This document shows, piece by piece, positions 2,737 through 8,811 of a stretch of 64,000 bases of DNA (the first letter of the stretch is position 1; the number at the start of each line of letters is the position of its first letter). The translations under genes and the position numbers were made by a program. Under the pieces are notes generated by a model. That model searched no databases. It worked only from the letters and a program-made list of their open reading frames with translations, and was not told the origin of the DNA. This DNA is from Cyclobacteriaceae bacterium (GTDB lineage Bacteria; Bacteroidota; Bacteroidia; Cytophagales; Cyclobacteriaceae), in the NCBI GenBank assembly GCA_958296015.1, contig CATQIH010000032.1, positions 85,795 to 149,794 on the forward strand, written 5' to 3'.

Positions 2737-3798
2737 TTATATGCTGGCATCAGCACTGAAATTATTGGATTGTGCATATCTATTTATAGAAGATATGTTT
2801 CTGATTTTGTTATATATATGATCATGTTTATAATTTAATATTATTATCTCTTCAATAAAGCCTTTCAATCTTTGTATTTTGCAATAGTAAAGAACCTTAT
2901 TCTTGATAAAAAGATTGTAGTTAAACTTTACTTTTAAATAATCTACAAAAGCATACATTAACTCTCCTTTCCAAATGCTCTTCTTTCTTAAAACTTTTTT
3001 ATTTTTCTCAGCTAAATATTTATAGCAATTAAGTATTGCATTACACTTGCCGATCTGATAATTAAGATCGTACACGTATTCCTTTTCTAATCTAGAAGTA
3101 GGTATAAAGTGATAAAATTTTAATTCTGGGTTAAACCAGATTTTTTTTCCTCTTAATCTTAAAGCAAAGCACAACTCAGTGTCGCCCCCTGAGGATAAAC
3201 TTTCGCCTTCTCTATCACTTAGTAAAGTAGAAAAGCTACTTTTAATAAGAGAGGTGTATTGTGATTTTCTTATTGTCATTCCTGCTCCATAAACTCTGTT
3301 AACTTCACCAGCAAATTTAGCAGGCGCACCAACAGCATATACAGATTTTACACTTTCAAACCACGGATGTATTTGCGTTTCTAAAACAGCCTCTCCCTGC
3401 CCACCTAAAACTCCAATCATCGCATCACTTTCCATCGTTTCAAAAGCAATTCTTACATAGTCCTTATTTAACCAATTATCATCATCACAAAACAAACAGT
3501 ATTCATACTGTGCCGTTTCAAATCCCTTATCACGAGCATAGGATAAACCAGGCTTGGGTTGGTCAACGATGCTAAAGGGGATATCCAGATGATATTGCTG
3601 CCATTCCTTTTTTGCTACCGCTACCGTATCATCCGTAGAAGCATTGTTAACCACAATTACCTCCCAAGGTATATCGCTAGGCACTTGCTGTTGTGCCAGG
3701 TGCCTGAGCGTCTCGGGCAGCCGCTTTGCGCTGTTGTAGCAGCAGACGATGACGGATACGCCGGGGGTGTTGGGAACGGTGGTTGTTTGTTGGATCAT
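2737..3798 (-). CDS. GT2-family glycosyltransferase
   Basis: SVIVCCYNS, VVNNASTD, FCDDD, GGDTELC motifs. Start moved to ATG 3798 because the ORF-track N-terminus translates the palindromic repeat. Confidence 0.9.
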   Translation of the reverse strand: MIQQTTTVPNTPGVSVIVCCYNSAKRLPETLRHLAQQQVPSDIPWEVIVVNNASTDDTVAVAKKEWQQYHLDIPFSIVDQPKPGLSYARDKGFETAQYEYCLFCDDDNWLNKDYVRIAFETMESDAMIGVLGGQGEAVLETQIHPWFESVKSVYAVGAPAKFAGEVNRVYGAGMTIRKSQYTSLIKSSFSTLLSDREGESLSSGGDTELCFALRLRGKKIWFNPELKFYHFIPTSRLEKEYVYDLNYQIGKCNAILNCYKYLAEKNKKVLRKKSIWKGELMYAFVDYLKVKFNYNLFIKNKVLYYCKIQRLKGFIEEIIILNYKHDHIYNKIRNISSINRYAQSNNFSADASI

Positions 3799-3818
3799 GG
3801 GTGTTTTTTTGTCGCTAT

Positions 3819-3891
3819 TCCTCCCCCTGGCCCCCTCCAAAGGGGGATATAGCGCGTAACTATCCCCCTTGGAAGGGGGCTAGGGGGATGA
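3819..3891. repeat. 73 bp nested palindrome, left copy of the DUF559-flanking inverted repeat
   Basis: Arms CCCCCTGGCCCCCTCCAAAGGGGGATA and TATCCCCCTTGGAAGGGGGCTAGGGGG are near reverse complements; each arm also contains CCCCCT..AGGGGG. Confidence 0.9.
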
Positions 3892-3904
3892 GCGAATTTT
3901 TATC

Positions 3905-4309
3905 TTATTTGTTCATTTGTTTTTTATTGTACATCTCTATATATGCTTCTATGGTGCGTATGACGTTGTTTATGTCATTGAGCACTTCATCATCATGAAA
4001 CCTAATCACTTGAAAGCCTATCTGCTCTAAGGCTTCATCTCTTAGACAGTCTTTTTTATAGACTTCTTCATCCTGGTGCGTGATGCCATCCACTTCTATG
4101 ACCAGCATCAGGTCTTTGCACATAAAATCCACAATATAATTTAGCAATGCCCGCTGGCGGTGGAAGGTATAACCTTCCATGCTTCCATTACGCAATACGT
4201 ACTTCCACAGACAAGCTTCGGCTTTGGTCATGTCCTGGCGCAAACTGCTGGCCAGGGGTTTTAACTTTTTGTTGTAATGCCAGTTGTTGTGTGGACCTGC
4301 TTTTTCCAT
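3905..4309 (-). CDS. DUF559 domain endonuclease (Vsr-like)
   Basis: LRQDMTKAEACLW, YIVDFMC, LVIEVDGITH, RDEAL..GFQVIRF are characteristic of DUF559. Confidence 0.9.
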   Translation of the reverse strand: MEKAGPHNNWHYNKKLKPLASSLRQDMTKAEACLWKYVLRNGSMEGYTFHRQRALLNYIVDFMCKDLMLVIEVDGITHQDEEVYKKDCLRDEALEQIGFQVIRFHDDEVLNDINNVIRTIEAYIEMYNKKQMNK

Positions 4310-4390
4310 GTCTGGTTTTGGGCATTTGTGTTTTGTTGGAAGATTTTTTATCTGCTGTTGTCGCTTATCATCCCCCCCAACCCCCTTTGA

Positions 4391-5808
4391 CTAGTGTTTA
4401 TACATATCTTTGTCAGGAGCTAAAAGCCAACCTGCCAGCATACTTTCAAAACGTTTTAAGCCTCTGGTGAAGGTAATCACGCCAGGTGGTCTTTGGCTTT
4501 GATAGCCTTTCCACCCCCCTAACCTGGCAATAATCCAGGAGGCCCAGGCTAAGTCACTTTCCTGATAAGGATTCTTGTGTTTAGCTGTTTGACCTTCCAG
4601 ACCAACTAAGAGCACTTTTAGAAAGGCTTGTTGTACTACACTAAAGCCTACGGCTATGGGCTGTGTACTTGTGGCTGACCTGGCTTGTCTAAGTTGCATG
4701 ACCAGCAGCGCACTTTTCATAGCAATCACGCCTAACTTTCTCAGGCTGTAGCCTTGCTCTAACTCTGAGGCTTCCAAGTTGAAGCCCTCTGATTTGAGCA
4801 GACGGAAATAGTCCTCTATGATCCATCGCAGGCTATACCAATGCACCATCTGCAAAGCTTGCTCAAAACAACTAACCGGATGGGTAGTGAGCAGATTCCA
4901 CTCCACAGGCTTTTCTTTGCCTGCACTCTGAGGAGTTTCTTTACCCTGTACCAAATATAAGGTTACATTTTTAGGATAGACCTTGGCATGGGGGTTGTTG
5001 TCCGGGCGCAGCAGTTTTACTTGCACAAAGCGTACTTGCATCTCAACGTTGCGCTGCTTTCGCTTACCAGGTAAACCCGGCAACAGAAAACTATACCCTC
5101 CACAGGCTGGCTGCTGGTCAGCATAGTCATAGAGCTTATGCTTTTCTCCTTGCATGGTCTCTATCAGACGGTTCACCCGGCTGCGGATAAGCAAGTGAGT
5201 GCGCTCATCGGGCACCCTGACAAAACTGTCATATATATCCCCTTCCCGATCCTGCACGAAAGTAACCTCACGGGCCTGCTGTAAACAAGGTTGGCTCGCC
5301 TGGCAAGCTTTTATCCAGCGATAAGTCTCTTTTTTTTCTATGGGTAGCGGTGCTGTTGGCTTCTCTTGCCCTGCTGCCCGTATCCACAACTGCACATCGC
5401 TCAAGCCTAATACGCTGCCTTGCTGAGCATCTATGACCAGGCTGCAATGAGCAAAGTAGCCTATATCTTGGTTGTTGCCTACCAAACCCAAGCCACTCTC
5501 AGCTTGGATCAAGCCTTGATGAGAAGCATAGTTGATCTCTGTGCTATCTTGCAGCACCAGCACATCTTTGCCTGCCACCTGACCCCTGCATTGGCTCTGT
5601 GCCTGCTCTATCAAAGCACCTTCTCTCACTTTATCATTACCCAAATAACGATAAAAACTCATCAACTCTGACCAGTTATCACTGAGCCTGTTGATGACTA
5701 TGGTTTGTTTTTCGGCTATCTTATGCTCCAATTGAACCCCCTTTTTTCCAGCCGCTTGTCTCCATGAAGGCTGGTGGTTTTTCTTCCTGATGTCTTTGTC
5801 TCTATCAT
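4391..5808 (-). CDS. IS50-like DDE transposase, needs a -1 frameshift near 5736-5746
   Basis: QDSTE, DREGD, YSLRWIIEDYFRLLKS and IARLGGW...RPPG motifs in ORF 4391-5731. An upstream frame from ATG 5808 encodes GDKRLEKRG and joins at an A6G5 run. Confidence 0.85.
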
Positions 5809-5890
5809 CTTCTGCTTGTTTATGTCTTTCCTTTCTTTATCTTAACACCAACACTACTTTATTCCTCTCAGACTTATGTATAAACACTAG
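4391..5890 (-). mobile_element. IS4-family (IS50/Tn5-like) insertion sequence, 1500 bp
   Basis: Perfect 16 bp terminal IR CTAGTGTTTATACATA. The right end CTAGTGTTTATACATAAGT resembles the IS50 outside end CTGACTCTTATACACAAGT. The transposase stop lies inside the left IR. Confidence 0.93.
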
Positions 5891-6004
5891 CCTTCAAAGG
5901 GGGACAGACACGCGCTATATCCCCCTCTGGAGGGGGGTAGGGGGAGGACTATCTTCTCCCCGAAGCACTAATCTCTATTTTTAATCCAACTGTCAAATAT
6001 GTTA

Positions 6005-6742
6005 TCAAAACAGCTTACTTGCCTTTTTACCAATTGCTTTACCTAATGTTTTTAGAGAAAGATCAACGCCTACTGCACCGGTCTGCCAGTCATTGACCTG
6101 CTGCCTAAGCTTTTCAATACTTTGCCAAAATTTAGGATGAATTAAATTATCACCTTTGAATATTGGAAAGTCTGGCTTCACATTCTCATGGCAAACCAAA
6201 AACATGTTCTGTCTATACCAAATGTCTACTCTTTCATTATTCCATACCGCAGGACGGATTATATCGTAATATTCATAACCGTATCGCCTAAACTTCTCCT
6301 GCCAGTAAGCCGGCCATTGTTCATTCAGGTGATTTTGTCCGCCTTGTCCAGGTATGGCTGCTGAAAAAAGAATGGTCTTACTATGTTTGGTTAATGATGC
6401 CACAAAAACATCAGCAGCACTTTCCGGCAAATGCTCGGCTACTTCTAATGATACAGCCAGATCAAATATTCTGCCAAGGTTCAAGGGTTTTGTCAGGTCA
6501 TGGGCTACGAATCTTTCTTCTGCTATTTGTAGCATAGAGCGATCAACATAATTACCATCGACACCTGTAAAATCTGATATACCCATATCGTTAAATACTT
6601 TTAGCCAGGTACCTGTGCCGCAACCTACGTCTAAAATAGATTGGGGCTGAACATACTCAAACAGAATAGGCAATACTATTTCTGCTGCACGGGTGTTGTG
6701 CACATCTTCACTATGCACGTACAATGGATTCGCAGTTTTCAA
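6005..6742 (-). CDS. class I SAM-dependent methyltransferase
   Basis: ILDVGCGTG motif I; SLEVAEHL; AAIPGQGG.NHLNEQW. Confidence 0.9.
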   Translation of the reverse strand: MKTANPLYVHSEDVHNTRAAEIVLPILFEYVQPQSILDVGCGTGTWLKVFNDMGISDFTGVDGNYVDRSMLQIAEERFVAHDLTKPLNLGRIFDLAVSLEVAEHLPESAADVFVASLTKHSKTILFSAAIPGQGGQNHLNEQWPAYWQEKFRRYGYEYYDIIRPAVWNNERVDIWYRQNMFLVCHENVKPDFPIFKGDNLIHPKFWQSIEKLRQQVNDWQTGAVGVDLSLKTLGKAIGKKASKLF

Positions 6743-8006
6743 GCGTAAAAGAAATTTGAGGTTGATAAACTTTATTTAATGTAGGATTGACAAACACGCC
6801 ACTTTGAAAAACATCAGATGCTTTTAAATCCAGATAAAAAGCATCATTGATTGTGTCGAAGTTATCTTCGTTATCGCCAAAATACAGGTCTACTCCACAT
6901 TGTCCACTCCCATACATTGATACATTAGGAATGGAAACTGATATAACTCCTTCTTCCTGATCAGTGTATAACTTCTCAGAGGTATGACGGTTATTTATTC
7001 CAATAAAAGGCTCATCGTATGGTGATCTAATCACGATACCTAATATAGGATTGACAAGTGTATCTTCAAGTTTAAAGTAAAATTTTATACGCAAATCGTC
7101 TCCCGGAGCAAGTATGGTAGAAGGCTTGTCATTGACAAACACTTCAGCTTTTTGTAGACCAAAAGCTCTTCTATACTTTTTATTCTGGTGATTGCTTAAG
7201 TCAACCACATGAGAAAGATCTCCGTTTGCTTTACCAGCATTTAAATAACGGTTGATAGCTTCCGGGGCTTCTCCGTCAAAATATGTTTGTCCTGAGTGAA
7301 AAATAACTCCTCTGGTACACAATGACTCTACTGCCCCCATGTTATGACTCACAAACAACACCGTCCTACCTCCTCGCTGCGTCACATCTTCCATCTTGCC
7401 TAGGCACTTTTTCTGAAACTCGGCATCGCCTACGGCCAGTACTTCGTCGATGATCAATATCTCTGGTTCCAGGTGGGCGGCTACGGCAAAGGCCAGGCGT
7501 ACTTTCATGCCGCTGCTGTAGTGTTTCACTGGCGTATCTATGAACTTTTCTACGCCGGAGAAATCTATGATCTCATCAAACTTGGCTTTTACTTCGGTGC
7601 GGCGCATGCCCAGGATCGTGCCGTTGAGGTAGACGTTTTCTCTGCCAGTCAACTCTTCGTGGAAGCCAGTGCCTACTTCCAGCAGAGAGGATACACGGCC
7701 AAAGATCTCAAACCGGCCTTTGGTAGGCTCGGTGATGCGTGACAGAATTTTGAGCAGCGTACTTTTACCAGCCCCGTTGCGTCCGATAATGCCTACGGCT
7801 TCCCCTTGTTTGATCTCAAAGTTTACATCTTTCAGTGCCCAGAAGTCTTTTGGGTCTTGGGGATTGGGTTTTGGGGATTGGGTTTTGGGGCGAAAGAAAT
7901 GAGTTAGGCTTTCCCGGAAATCCCCGCTTTTCTGGCCGCCGTATCCCCGTTGGCCTAAGCTGTAGCGTTTACCCAAATTTTCTACTTTGATGGCAATGTC
8001 GGTCAT
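6711..8006 (-). CDS. wzt: polysaccharide ABC exporter ATP-binding subunit with Wzt C-terminal domain
   Basis: GRNGAGKST Walker A, YSSGMKVRLAF signature, IIDEVLAVGD Walker B, C-terminal extension. Confidence 0.93.
   Translation of the reverse strand: MTDIAIKVENLGKRYSLGQRGYGGQKSGDFRESLTHFFRPKTQSPKPNPQDPKDFWALKDVNFEIKQGEAVGIIGRNGAGKSTLLKILSRITEPTKGRFEIFGRVSSLLEVGTGFHEELTGRENVYLNGTILGMRRTEVKAKFDEIIDFSGVEKFIDTPVKHYSSGMKVRLAFAVAAHLEPEILIIDEVLAVGDAEFQKKCLGKMEDVTQRGGRTVLFVSHNMGAVESLCTRGVIFHSGQTYFDGEAPEAINRYLNAGKANGDLSHVVDLSNHQNKKYRRAFGLQKAEVFVNDKPSTILAPGDDLRIKFYFKLEDTLVNPILGIVIRSPYDEPFIGINNRHTSEKLYTDQEEGVISVSIPNVSMYGSGQCGVDLYFGDNEDNFDTINDAFYLDLKASDVFQSGVFVNPTLNKVYQPQISFTLENCESIVRA
7851..7890. repeat. 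G-rich 15 bp tandem repeat within the wzt N-terminal linker
   Basis: TGGGTCTTGGGGATTGGGTTTTGGGGATTGGGTTTTGGGG, encoding PKTQSPKPNPQDP. Confidence 0.8.
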
Positions 8007-8080
8007 GTTGTTTTACTTTTTTAAAATCCTGTTTATCCTAATCTATCCTGTACATCCCAATTTAGAAAGTAGCTTTTCCG

Positions 8081-8088
8081 TATATTTG
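8081..8088 (+). promoter_or_regulatory. Bacteroidota -7 promoter element of the TA operon
   Basis: TATATTTG matches TAnnTTTG, immediately before the antitoxin ATG. Confidence 0.5.
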
Positions 8089-8089
8089 C

Positions 8090-8317
8090 ATGATGAAACA
8101 TATTATTGTAGTTGATGACAGCAGCAAAGCAGGAAAAAGCCTGCTTGAACTTGCGGCAATACTAGCCGAGCGCGACAAAAATATCTTGCTAATGTCTGAA
8201 GAGGAAGAAGATAAAACATTGCTTAGAGAAATGCTGTCTTCCCACAAATCAGGCATCCTGGATGCTTCTGAAAAAGCAAAATTTCTTGACCAACTCAAGG
8301 AGCAGGCTGGTATATGA
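8090..8317 (+). CDS. putative antitoxin
   Basis: 75 aa with acidic patch, directly upstream of relE with an ATGA overlap. Confidence 0.7.
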   Translation: MMKHIIVVDDSSKAGKSLLELAAILAERDKNILLMSEEEEDKTLLREMLSSHKSGILDASEKAKFLDQLKEQAGI

Positions 8318-8595
8318 ATTTTGAAATTAGCAAAGACTTTCAAAAATCTTTCAACCGCCTTAAAGACAAAAAACTGGCTACTGCTATTCTTGCCGCCATT
8401 GATGAAGTAAACCAGGCTGAGCAACTTGCTGATATTAATCACCTTAAGAAGCTGAAAGGCCATGAAACTGCGTATCGTATCCGCACAGGAAATTATCGGA
8501 TTGGCGTTTTCGTTGAGCATGACGCTTCTGGTGAGCTTTCTATTATCTTTGCTGCTTTTTCGCATCGCAAAGATATTTACAAAAAATTTCCTTGA
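8314..8595 (+). CDS. relE: RelE/ParE family type II toxin
   Basis: KDFQKSFNRL...LKKLKGHETAYRIRTGNYRI. Confidence 0.88.
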   Translation: MNFEISKDFQKSFNRLKDKKLATAILAAIDEVNQAEQLADINHLKKLKGHETAYRIRTGNYRIGVFVEHDASGELSIIFAAFSHRKDIYKKFP

Positions 8596-8604
8596 AGCTT
8601 TTCT

Positions 8605-8811
8605 GCGAAAGAAATGAGCCAAGCTTTTACGCAGGTCACCGTGAATACGGTCGCCGTGAATACGGTCGCCGTGAATACGGTCGCCGTGAATACGGTCACC
8701 GCTTTTCTGGCCGCCGTATTCCACACCGGGCCGCCGGGCGGTAGATACTGCACGGTGGCCTAAGCTATAACGTTTGCCTAAATTTTCTACCTTGATGGCA
8801 ATGTCGGTCAT
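8605..8811 (-). pseudogene. duplicated 5' fragment of wzt
   Basis: MTDIAIKVENLGKRYSLG...YGGQKSGD...HFFR matches the N-terminus of 6711-8006; homology ends 9 bp from the relE stop. Confidence 0.85.
8634..8701. repeat. 15 bp tandem repeat x4 (GGTCRCCGTGAATAC), in frame GDRIH x4
   Basis: Direct reading; each unit contains the mini-hairpin CCGT-GAAT-ACGG. Confidence 0.9.

Follow-up and report, generated by a model that had tools for sequence, protein, structure and literature searches.

Within the window, a 64,000-nt stretch of a Cyclobacteriaceae genome, a small gene predicted to encode a DNA-cutting enzyme lies between two folded, mirror-image repeats in a cluster of polysaccharide genes. The gene, at 3905-4309 on the minus strand, is intact, encodes 134 aa, and is the only ORF of substance between the repeats. 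It matched Pfam DUF559 (PF04480, 3e-33; 114.4 bits against a cut-off of 20.6) and PDB 3HRL (6.9e-19), consistent with a Vsr-like PD-(D/E)XK fold, while the NCBIfam hit was to a DUF559 model but fell below its cut-off. The protein carries every residue that is invariant among 20 relatives (R24, W35, F49, R51, Q52, F62, L69, E72, D74, H78, D87, and G98), including E72-x-D74...H78, and therefore looks functional from sequence alone. A tBLASTN search found no paralog in this genome, and an exact-protein look-up in public assemblies returned no record. The gene is co-oriented with the surrounding polysaccharide genes, a GT2 glycosyltransferase gene at 2737-3798(-) and a SAM-dependent methyltransferase gene at 6005-6742(-), which are host genes rather than part of the unit.

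The first repeat, E1 (3819-3891), is a 73-bp palindromic element located 13 nt downstream of the DUF559 stop in gene orientation and ending 20 nt before the GT2 start codon at 3798. Each repeat pairs two mirror-image half-motifs, which we term L (C5-loop-G5-N2-3-G5) and R (C5-N2-3-C5-loop-G5). On the plus strand, E1 reads as an R half (3823-3846, CCCCC-TGG-CCCCC-TCCAAA-GGGGG), a 17-nt spacer, and an L half (3864-3887, CCCCC-TTGGAA-GGGGG-CTA-GGGGG). It pairs 3819-3849 with 3861-3891 (31 nt, 87%), and as single-stranded DNA it is predicted to fold into one long hairpin of -30.6 kcal/mol (z = -6.8), with 0 of 200 shuffles as good. The second repeat, E2, is split in two. Its left piece (4368-4390, CAT-C7-AA-C5-TTTGA) is, in gene orientation, the inner, gene-proximal part of the upstream element, 58 nt from the start codon, and its right piece (5891-5948) consists of CCTTCAAA-GGGGG, the spacer ACAGACACGCGCTATAT, and an L-type motif at 5921-5944 (CCCCC-TCTGGA-GGGGGG-TA-GGGGG), making it the inverted counterpart of E1. 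The arms 3816-3876 and 5891-5951 are 61 nt long and 87% complementary, the remaining piece 4373-4387 pairs with 3873-3887 (15 nt, 87%), and the spacers ATATAGCGCGT in E1 and ACGCGCTATAT in E2 are present in inverted orientation. A 4-bp CTAT flanks the whole structure, which could be chance.

E2 is interrupted in its hairpin loop by a 1,500-bp insertion sequence (4391-5890, minus strand) with 28-nt inverted ends and a transposase ORF at 4391-5731(-), which belongs to the IS4 family (NF033590, 2.3e-94). It is one of 8 near-identical copies in the genome, 6 of which sit in C4/C5-loop-G4/G5 hairpin elements. E2 cannot be rebuilt exactly because the IS flanks here are inverted rather than a simple 10-bp direct duplication, an arrangement that we could not explain. 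Nevertheless, all parts of what the sequence-only reading had described, two inverted, self-palindromic repeats of about 75 bp with a conserved spacer enclosing only the DUF559 gene between two polysaccharide genes, were confirmed.

To determine whether the arrangement could be due to chance, we searched for the repeats elsewhere. A BLASTN-short search of the whole 5.9-Mb genome with both repeats found only the two local copies, and a degenerate motif search was needed to see the family. The strict motif C5-N1-5-C5-N4-9-G5 occurs 3 times in the genome, all at this gene, whereas the same pattern read backwards gives almost no hits in 61 genomes. In five other genomes of this set (G003, G006, G010, G024, and G043) the only hits also flank DUF559 genes, and across the 61 genomes at least 21 hits lie within 250 bp of DUF559 genes, against about 0.04 expected by our arithmetic. 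In 30 loci from relatives, motif density was 2.17 per kb near the gene and 0.10 per kb further out. We used a profile of six close sequences to search for further loci; in 80 independent homologous loci from other species, the motif was 55 times denser within 250 bp of the gene than further out (2.83 against 0.051 per kb). Of these 80 loci, 53 have L upstream and/or R downstream, just after the stop, and 29 have both. In the nearest subfamily, 26 of 36 downstream ends read C5-TA(A)-C5-GCCAGC-G5, and these come from Bacteroidales, Chitinophagales, Sphingobacteriales, Chlorobiota, and Nitrospirota MAGs, indicating that the ends travel with the gene. The inverted orientation of the two repeats in the window is not typical, as in other repeat-gene-repeat loci the two repeats are direct.

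Comparison of paralogous copies indicated that gene and repeats form a discrete unit. G005, the only genome of its genus in the set, has two copies sharing 586 bp at 89.6%, with the shared stretch ending at L on one side and about 25 nt beyond R on the other, and G017 has two copies sharing 593 bp at 95%, running about 50 nt beyond the motifs on each side. No target duplication was found at the ends of either pair. The gene is absent from both same-genus genomes and patchy across the family, occurring in 26 of 61 genomes, and it occupies at least 7 different loci in 8 Pedobacter species. One Pedobacter site is filled in 2 species, while in at least 17 others the same two flanking genes are adjacent with no DUF559 match between them; in all 8 of these sites that were read, the intergenic DNA holds no such motif. 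No empty allele of the window's own site was found: G001 has a 49%-identical GT2 gene but three different genes between it and the ABC ATPase gene, and the same-genus genome G002 has only the ATPase gene, at a contig end, so there is no orthologous junction. Relatives also carry the cassette in frame inside bifunctional MurF/alanine racemase (murF-alr) and two type IIG restriction-modification genes, with L and R translated as Pro/Gly linkers. No transposase, integrase, or other ORF lies within the unit.

Repeats without the gene were also observed. This genome has no intact solo copy, only five IS-disrupted hairpin elements of related form, but G002 has about 10 nearly identical solo palindromes and no detected DUF559 domain, and G019 (one complete contig) and G054 also carry motifs without the gene. 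Thus, spread of the repeats does not require the gene, or the gene was lost or left unassembled. The G002 elements are MITE-like, and their outer inverted repeat (GGTAAACAAGTAATGCT) is absent from this genome. Other motif copies flank ordinary genes, namely barstar, ytoQ, moaC, and trp genes. In G039, the abundant repeat type (motif count 119) differs from the one flanking its DUF559 gene. In contrast, the single stand-alone DUF559 gene of G055 (a second, weak Pfam match lies inside a 1,570-aa open frame) has two palindromes of the same sequence type as that genome's roughly 20 other motif hits. Of the 9 genomes with a motif count of 4 or more, overlapping hits included, 6 have DUF559 against a base rate of 26 of 61, a weak enrichment.

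Together, these data lead us to favor, with moderate confidence, the view that the locus holds a compact selfish cassette in which one predicted Vsr-fold nuclease gene is bounded by hairpin-bearing inverted repeats of the intrastrand triplex motif type, a kind of mobile DNA for which we could not find a description. Our data show that gene and ends travel together and behave as a unit of about 0.6 kb that inserts into unrelated sites, both intergenic and in frame within genes. The mechanism, by contrast, is inferred, as are nuclease activity itself, any cut site or intermediate, and triplex formation by these sequences. In this view, the nuclease would recognize the folded ends, or a target, and make the break that starts copying of the cassette, by homing-like repair or structure-directed template switching rather than DDE or HUH transposition, and gene-less R-spacer-L palindromes would be non-autonomous derivatives or footprints. 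That each end in the window is a full R-spacer-L palindrome fits either a cassette lying inside or next to such a palindrome or a remnant of tandem units; the upstream end was later hit by an IS4-family element that prefers these hairpins, and the cassette sits co-oriented inside the polysaccharide cluster without breaking a gene. Counting against this view are the lack of a consistent target duplication, the numerous, near-identical solo palindromes in G002 without a detected gene, the motif copies at ordinary genes, the lack of an empty allele found for the window's own site, and the cellular, repair-like phenotype of a DUF559 protein of Caulobacter (PMC12907096), so that the gene may be cargo.

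The sequence-only reading had proposed that DUF559, by analogy to RAYT, spreads or maintains the repeat family, and this interpretation was only partly supported: the specific association and the non-DDE insertable unit held, but a nuclease serving a genome-wide repeat family was not supported as stated. A resident, largely domesticated nuclease acting in trans on dispersed palindromes would fit the layout of a gene between inverted repeats, the matching palindromes of G055, and the co-occurrence in E. coli K-12 of 23 TMECO repeats (PMC4666352) with one DUF559 gene, ycjD, next to a TM-like element. However, the lack of intact solos here, the solos without a detected gene in G002, and the mismatched types in G039 count against it, and a patchy, multi-copy gene that is inserted in frame in other genes and at different loci in congeners behaves like a selfish cassette rather than a vertically kept RAYT, such that we consider this model quite unlikely. 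A passenger model is also unlikely, though somewhat less so. Here, the palindromes would be self-standing repeats, spread by some other enzyme or by replication template switching at folded DNA, that tend to bracket or capture small genes, and DUF559 would be cargo with a cellular job, for example very-short-patch-like T:G mismatch repair linked to cytosine methylation. The solo palindromes, the motifs at unrelated genes, and the reported rearrangement-prone nature of TM loci (PMC4666352) are consistent with this, as is Caulobacter VsrA, which carries a DUF559 domain and causes an SOS response when the unlinked methylase ScmA is missing (PMC12907096); this genome likewise has two unlinked C5-cytosine methyltransferase genes. 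Duplications also sit next to ends, including a 38-bp host duplication in G023, a duplicated 3' gene end beside E. coli ycjD, and a tandem L in P. jejuensis. Yet a generic repeat would not be enriched 55-fold, in a fixed orientation and at fixed distances, around one gene family, would not keep the same GCCAGC end with that gene across phyla, and would not be the only copy in six genomes, and the motif-free Pedobacter sites indicate that the repeats arrived with the gene. Finally, the inverted repeats could serve recombination that flips the gene or a promoter for phase variation, but we regard this as very unlikely because no invertase gene lies nearby, the repeats are only 87% alike, and the flanking palindromes at other loci are direct. 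Because each element is itself a palindrome, we infer that spacer orientation can flip without functional meaning, and the published enrichment bearing on such switches is what inverted hairpin ends would produce anyway.

The architecture of the repeats is that of the BoxC/PIT/TM (TMECO) intrastrand-triplex motif repeats (Bachellier et al.; Hoyne et al., 2000; Holder et al., 2015, PMC4666352), which have three consecutive homopurine/homopyrimidine blocks, C-G-G (class II) or C-C-G when read on the other strand (class III), with loops of 1-6 nt. Like those repeats, which are intergenic, multi-copy, present in many phyla, linked to locus rearrangement, and often arranged as two inverted units (five inverted pairs in E. 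coli K-12), the solo palindromes of G002 and G055 are intergenic, multi-copy, and paired in inverted configuration. The runs here are 5 nt (6-7 with neighboring bases), at the lower edge of the published range of 6 or more and shorter than the 37-nt TMECO. The published survey found no mobility gene near such repeats ("we never found ... remnants of transposases or integrases"), whereas here the motifs are the ends of a predicted nuclease gene cassette. REP/RAYT (REPIN) systems share a single nuclease-type gene bracketed by inverted palindromic repeats, with gene-less copies elsewhere in some genomes, but their enzyme is a Y1 (HUH) IS200/IS605-like transposase, and Pfam gave no Y1_Tnp match here. 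Free-standing and intein- or intron-borne homing endonuclease genes, especially the Vsr-like EDxHD family that reportedly includes I-Bth0305I (PMC3239194), are likewise small selfish nuclease genes of Vsr-like fold with insertion into conserved genes and presence/absence polymorphism at otherwise syntenic sites, which for the cassette was seen in Pedobacter but not at the window's own site. The cassette, however, has no intron or intein, its in-frame copies are simply translated, it carries its own structured inverted ends, and it occupies many unrelated sites rather than one cognate site. Vsr/VSP repair endonucleases, including Caulobacter VsrA, share the fold and, as in Caulobacter, the gene is unlinked to the cytosine methylase genes, but we found no evidence for mismatch repair, and a repair role does not explain the hairpin ends, the in-frame insertions, or the scattered loci.

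BoxC/PIT/TM repeats have been catalogued since the 1990s in E. coli, cyanobacteria, and hundreds of other genomes with no reported origin or associated enzyme, and DUF559 is a very large family with almost no assigned biology. A reproducible, orientation-specific physical link between the two provides a testable hypothesis for both and a candidate partner gene for the repeats, and points to a nuclease-only mobile cassette that can sit silently in operons or be translated inside essential genes. It also flags annotation artefacts, namely "fusion" proteins with DUF559 domains, predicted "programmed inversions," and orphan "RNA motifs." If the nuclease recognizes folded DNA ends, it would be a new structure-specific enzyme and a new route of gene movement. 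More tentatively, and less likely than not, DUF559 nucleases may be the missing partner of the BoxC/PIT/TM and Whalefall-1-like repeats, together forming a phylum-spanning class of mobile element whose only protein is a minimal Vsr-fold PD-(D/E)XK nuclease, whose ends are hairpin/triplex-forming inverted repeats, and which moves by a chemistry that is neither DDE, HUH, nor recombinase based; gene-less palindromes, including the E. coli TMECO next to ycjD, would then be its non-autonomous offspring or footprints.

Other identities for the repeats were considered and rejected. The unit does not behave as a DDE insertion sequence or MITE, as it contains no DDE gene, its ends are unrelated to those of the resident IS4-family element, and no consistent target duplication was found. 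An integron attC identity was rejected because no GTTRRRY core sites appear in E1 or E2 and nearby ORFs include no integrase, and a pattern scan predicted no intrinsic terminator at either element. A search for known RNA families gave only spurious miRNA hits and sub-threshold matches to Whalefall-1 (RF01762), an RNA motif of unknown function described from metagenomes. The Whalefall-1 consensus, a hairpin CUCUCC-UUGG-GGAGAG followed by AGGGUGAGGAC, aligned to the L motif at 5917-5949 and 3818-3850 with 27.5 and 25.1 bits, below the gathering score of 37, and here the element is most simply a DNA repeat.

On the + strand, the region opens with a GT2 glycosyltransferase gene (2737-3798, minus strand), followed by a 73-bp palindromic element, E1 (3819-3891), the DUF559 gene encoding 134 aa (3905-4309, minus strand), and a second element, E2, whose first 23 bp (4368-4390) are separated from its remaining 58 bp (5891-5948) by a 1,500-bp insertion sequence (4391-5890). 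A methyltransferase gene (6005-6742, minus strand) lies beyond E2. A repeat search identified a 61-nt inverted repeat at 87% between 3816-3876 and 5891-5951, paired the remaining piece 4373-4387 with 3873-3887, and showed the self-palindrome of E1, in which 3819-3849 pairs with 3861-3891. Folded in silico as single-stranded DNA, E1 forms one long hairpin of -30.6 kcal/mol (z = -6.8). The IS has 28-nt inverted ends and an IS4-family transposase (NF033590, 2.3e-94). The sequence-only reading, in which a DUF559 gene is bracketed by two inverted, self-palindromic repeats, one of them split by an IS, was therefore correct in all its parts.

Each element joins two mirror-image halves, R (CCCCC-N2-3-CCCCC-loop-GGGGG) and L (CCCCC-loop-GGGGG-N2-3-GGGGG), in the order R-spacer-L. 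In gene orientation, L lies 58 nt upstream of the DUF559 start and R lies 13 nt after its stop, while the outer halves complete a palindrome on each side. A C-run/G-run/G-run block with short loops is the definition of the class II/III "intrastrand triplex motif" (BoxC, PIT, TMECO), and by architecture the repeat fits this TM/BoxC/PIT class. Holder et al. (2015) catalogued such motifs in thousands of genomes, noting that they often occur as inverted pairs, that TM-containing loci are more rearranged among E. coli strains than control sites, and that "we never found ... remnants of transposases or integrases" near them (PMC4666352). The orphan Rfam motif Whalefall-1 (RF01762), a metagenomic "RNA motif", also aligned to L, although the matches at 5917-5949(+) and 3818-3850(-) scored 27.5 and 25.1 bits, below the gathering score of 37. 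Its consensus, a hairpin plus AGGGUGAGGAC, looks like the same hairpin-plus-G-run DNA repeat.

To determine whether the link with DUF559 was more than chance, we searched for the motif in this genome and in 60 relatives (numbered with the prefix G). In the 5.9 Mb of this genome the strict motif occurs three times, all at this gene, which is single-copy. Across the genome and the 60 relatives the motif count ranged from 0 to 119 per genome, while the pattern read backwards was almost absent. In G003, G006, G010, G024 and G043 the only hits lie beside DUF559 genes, and G005, G016, G017, G025 and G055 add more. By our calculation, at least 21 hits lie within 250 bp of DUF559 genes, where about 0.04 are expected from overall density. 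We also fetched loci around homologues: in 30 relatives' loci, a relaxed motif had 2.17 hits per kb within 250 bp of the gene against 0.10 per kb further out, and in 80 further loci from named species and MAGs of Bacteroidota, Chlorobiota, Nitrospirota and others, the figures were 2.83 against 0.051 per kb. In those 80 loci, L typically lies 8-60 nt upstream and R 10-30 nt downstream; 53 of 80 have at least one in the expected place and 29 have both. In that subfamily, 26 of 36 downstream ends read CCCCC-TA(A)-CCCCC-GCCAGC-GGGGG whatever the host taxon, so the ends are inherited with the gene. The suggestion that similar hairpins occur near DUF559 genes in other bacteria was thus verified.

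We next asked whether gene and repeats form a unit that moves. Paralogous copies define its boundaries: in G005, two copies 525 kb apart share 586 bp at 89.6%, with the shared stretch ending at L on one side and about 25 nt beyond R on the other, and in G017, two copies share 593 bp at 95%, running about 50 nt beyond the motifs on each side, with an internally deleted copy lying in tandem. The gene is absent from both same-genus genomes and present in 26 of 61 relatives, and the best identity is only 60-66%. Eight Pedobacter species carry the cassette at seven or more different loci. P. jejuensis and P. mendelii share a site between a conserved gene and a GyrA/ParC-like gene (our reading of its N-terminus rather than a Pfam assignment), whereas in at least 17 other species the same two genes are adjacent with no DUF559 match between them. 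In the eight of these sites that we read, the intergenic DNA is unrelated and holds no such motif, so that there the repeats arrived with the gene. In relatives the cassette also lies in frame inside a bifunctional MurF/alanine racemase gene, between the Mur ligase M and C domains, and inside two Eco57I/MmeI-type restriction-modification genes (loci L061, G041:C1 ~806400-809400; L060, G015:C47; L062, G006:C34). These cassettes have the same hairpin ends, and L and R are translated as Pro/Gly-rich linkers. At another locus (L014, G023:C9, around 523632-523964), an L-gene-R cassette is flanked by a 38-bp direct duplication of the first codons of the host gene (ATGAAACGCATCCTCACCACC...AAAAATGGCC), a possible insertion signature that keeps the start of the host gene intact. 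For the copy studied here, no empty allele of its own site was found.

The encoded protein matches DUF559 at 3e-33 and the structural-genomics entry 3HRL at 6.9e-19. It keeps all residues invariant among 20 relatives, including E72-x-D74 and H78 of the PD-(D/E)XK-type site, and no other ORF of substance lies in the unit.

Several lines of evidence speak against movement of the cassette by its own predicted nuclease. G002, a genome of the same genus, has about ten nearly identical solo palindromes about 81% identical to E1 but no detectable DUF559 domain, although that assembly is 95% complete in 690 contigs. These R-spacer-L palindromes of ~70 bp (loci L045-L050) are embedded at the centre of a larger MITE-like element of about 150-190 bp with outer inverted repeats GGTAGTGGTAAACAAGTAATGCT / AGCATTACTTGTTTACTACTACC, an outer repeat that is absent from the genome studied here. 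The complete genome G019 and G054 also have motifs without the gene, in G039 the abundant repeat type is not the one flanking its DUF559 gene, and other copies flank barstar, ytoQ, moaC and trp genes. No consistent target duplication exists, and only a 4-bp CTAT brackets the whole structure here. Moreover, a DUF559 protein of Caulobacter (VsrA) has a repair-like cellular phenotype (PMC12907096), and this genome has two unlinked C5-methylase genes. We therefore hold two claims apart: that gene plus ends is one insertable, horizontally moving unit we consider likely, whereas that its own nuclease moves it remains doubtful. In its behavior the cassette works like a free-standing homing-endonuclease gene or a REP/RAYT pair, but it is a member of neither, as the enzyme is not a Y1 transposase, there is no intron or intein, and there is no cognate single site. 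Full-text literature searches found no paper linking DUF559 to these repeats or to mobility. The only annotated DUF559 gene of E. coli K-12, ycjD (L057, NC_000913.3 1351100-1351830), overlaps a C/G-run hairpin at its stop and is followed by a duplicated copy of its own last ~45 nt and then a TM/BoxC-like element (CCCCTCGCCCCTCTGGGGAGAGGGTTAGGGTGAGGGG), which ties the two literatures together but proves nothing about function.

The interpretation offered from sequence alone is partly supported: the mobile, non-DDE cassette is, whereas a RAYT-like role for the nuclease in spreading the repeats is not shown. The most likely account is a selfish Vsr-fold nuclease cassette with triplex-motif hairpin ends, later hit by a hairpin-seeking IS. 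What the data show is that gene and ends insert together; the mechanistic steps beyond this, including any action of the nuclease, are inferred.

Both ends of this copy are full palindromes (R-spacer-L, gene, R-spacer-L). That form recurs at loci L080, L126, L109 and L074 and, in frame, in G006, but there the two flanking palindromes are direct repeats, whereas here the spacers are inverted. Because each element is a palindrome, we infer that its central spacer can in principle flip, and we give the orientation little weight. This also weakens a reading of the locus as an invertible switch, although DUF559 genes are enriched among predicted inversion targets (PMC9881135), which is what hairpin ends would produce anyway.

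The IS is present in eight copies that are 99.9-100% identical. Six of these sit in C4/C5-loop-G4/G5 hairpin elements (4391-5890 in the window and, on other contig coordinates of this genome, C46:36231-37730, C9:157342-158841, C32:76202-77701, C12:6138-7637 and C43:4845-6344), so the genome does contain further elements of this class, all IS-disrupted. The preference for hairpins is clear, and IS4-family elements such as IS10 prefer symmetric targets. At five of the hairpin sites, rather than being direct copies, the two flanks are inverted copies of each other (CCCCCTTTGAAGG, IS, CCTTCAAAGGGGG), with the inverted flanks running up to about 85-100 nt, and as a result E2 cannot be rebuilt exactly. 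The other three copies have the normal, direct 10-bp duplication.

A different arrangement was observed at 8006-8811, where the first ~55 codons of the Wzt-type ABC ATPase gene (6711-8006) are duplicated upstream at 8811-8605 (minus strand) and the copy carries a fourfold 15-bp tandem repeat (GGCGACCGTATTCAC). A weak ParE-like toxin gene (PF05016, E 0.007, below the Pfam cut-off) and a small partner ORF with no Pfam match (8090-8595, + strand) lie between the copies. This looks like a toxin-antitoxin-like pair inserted at the 5' end of a gene, with duplication of the target.
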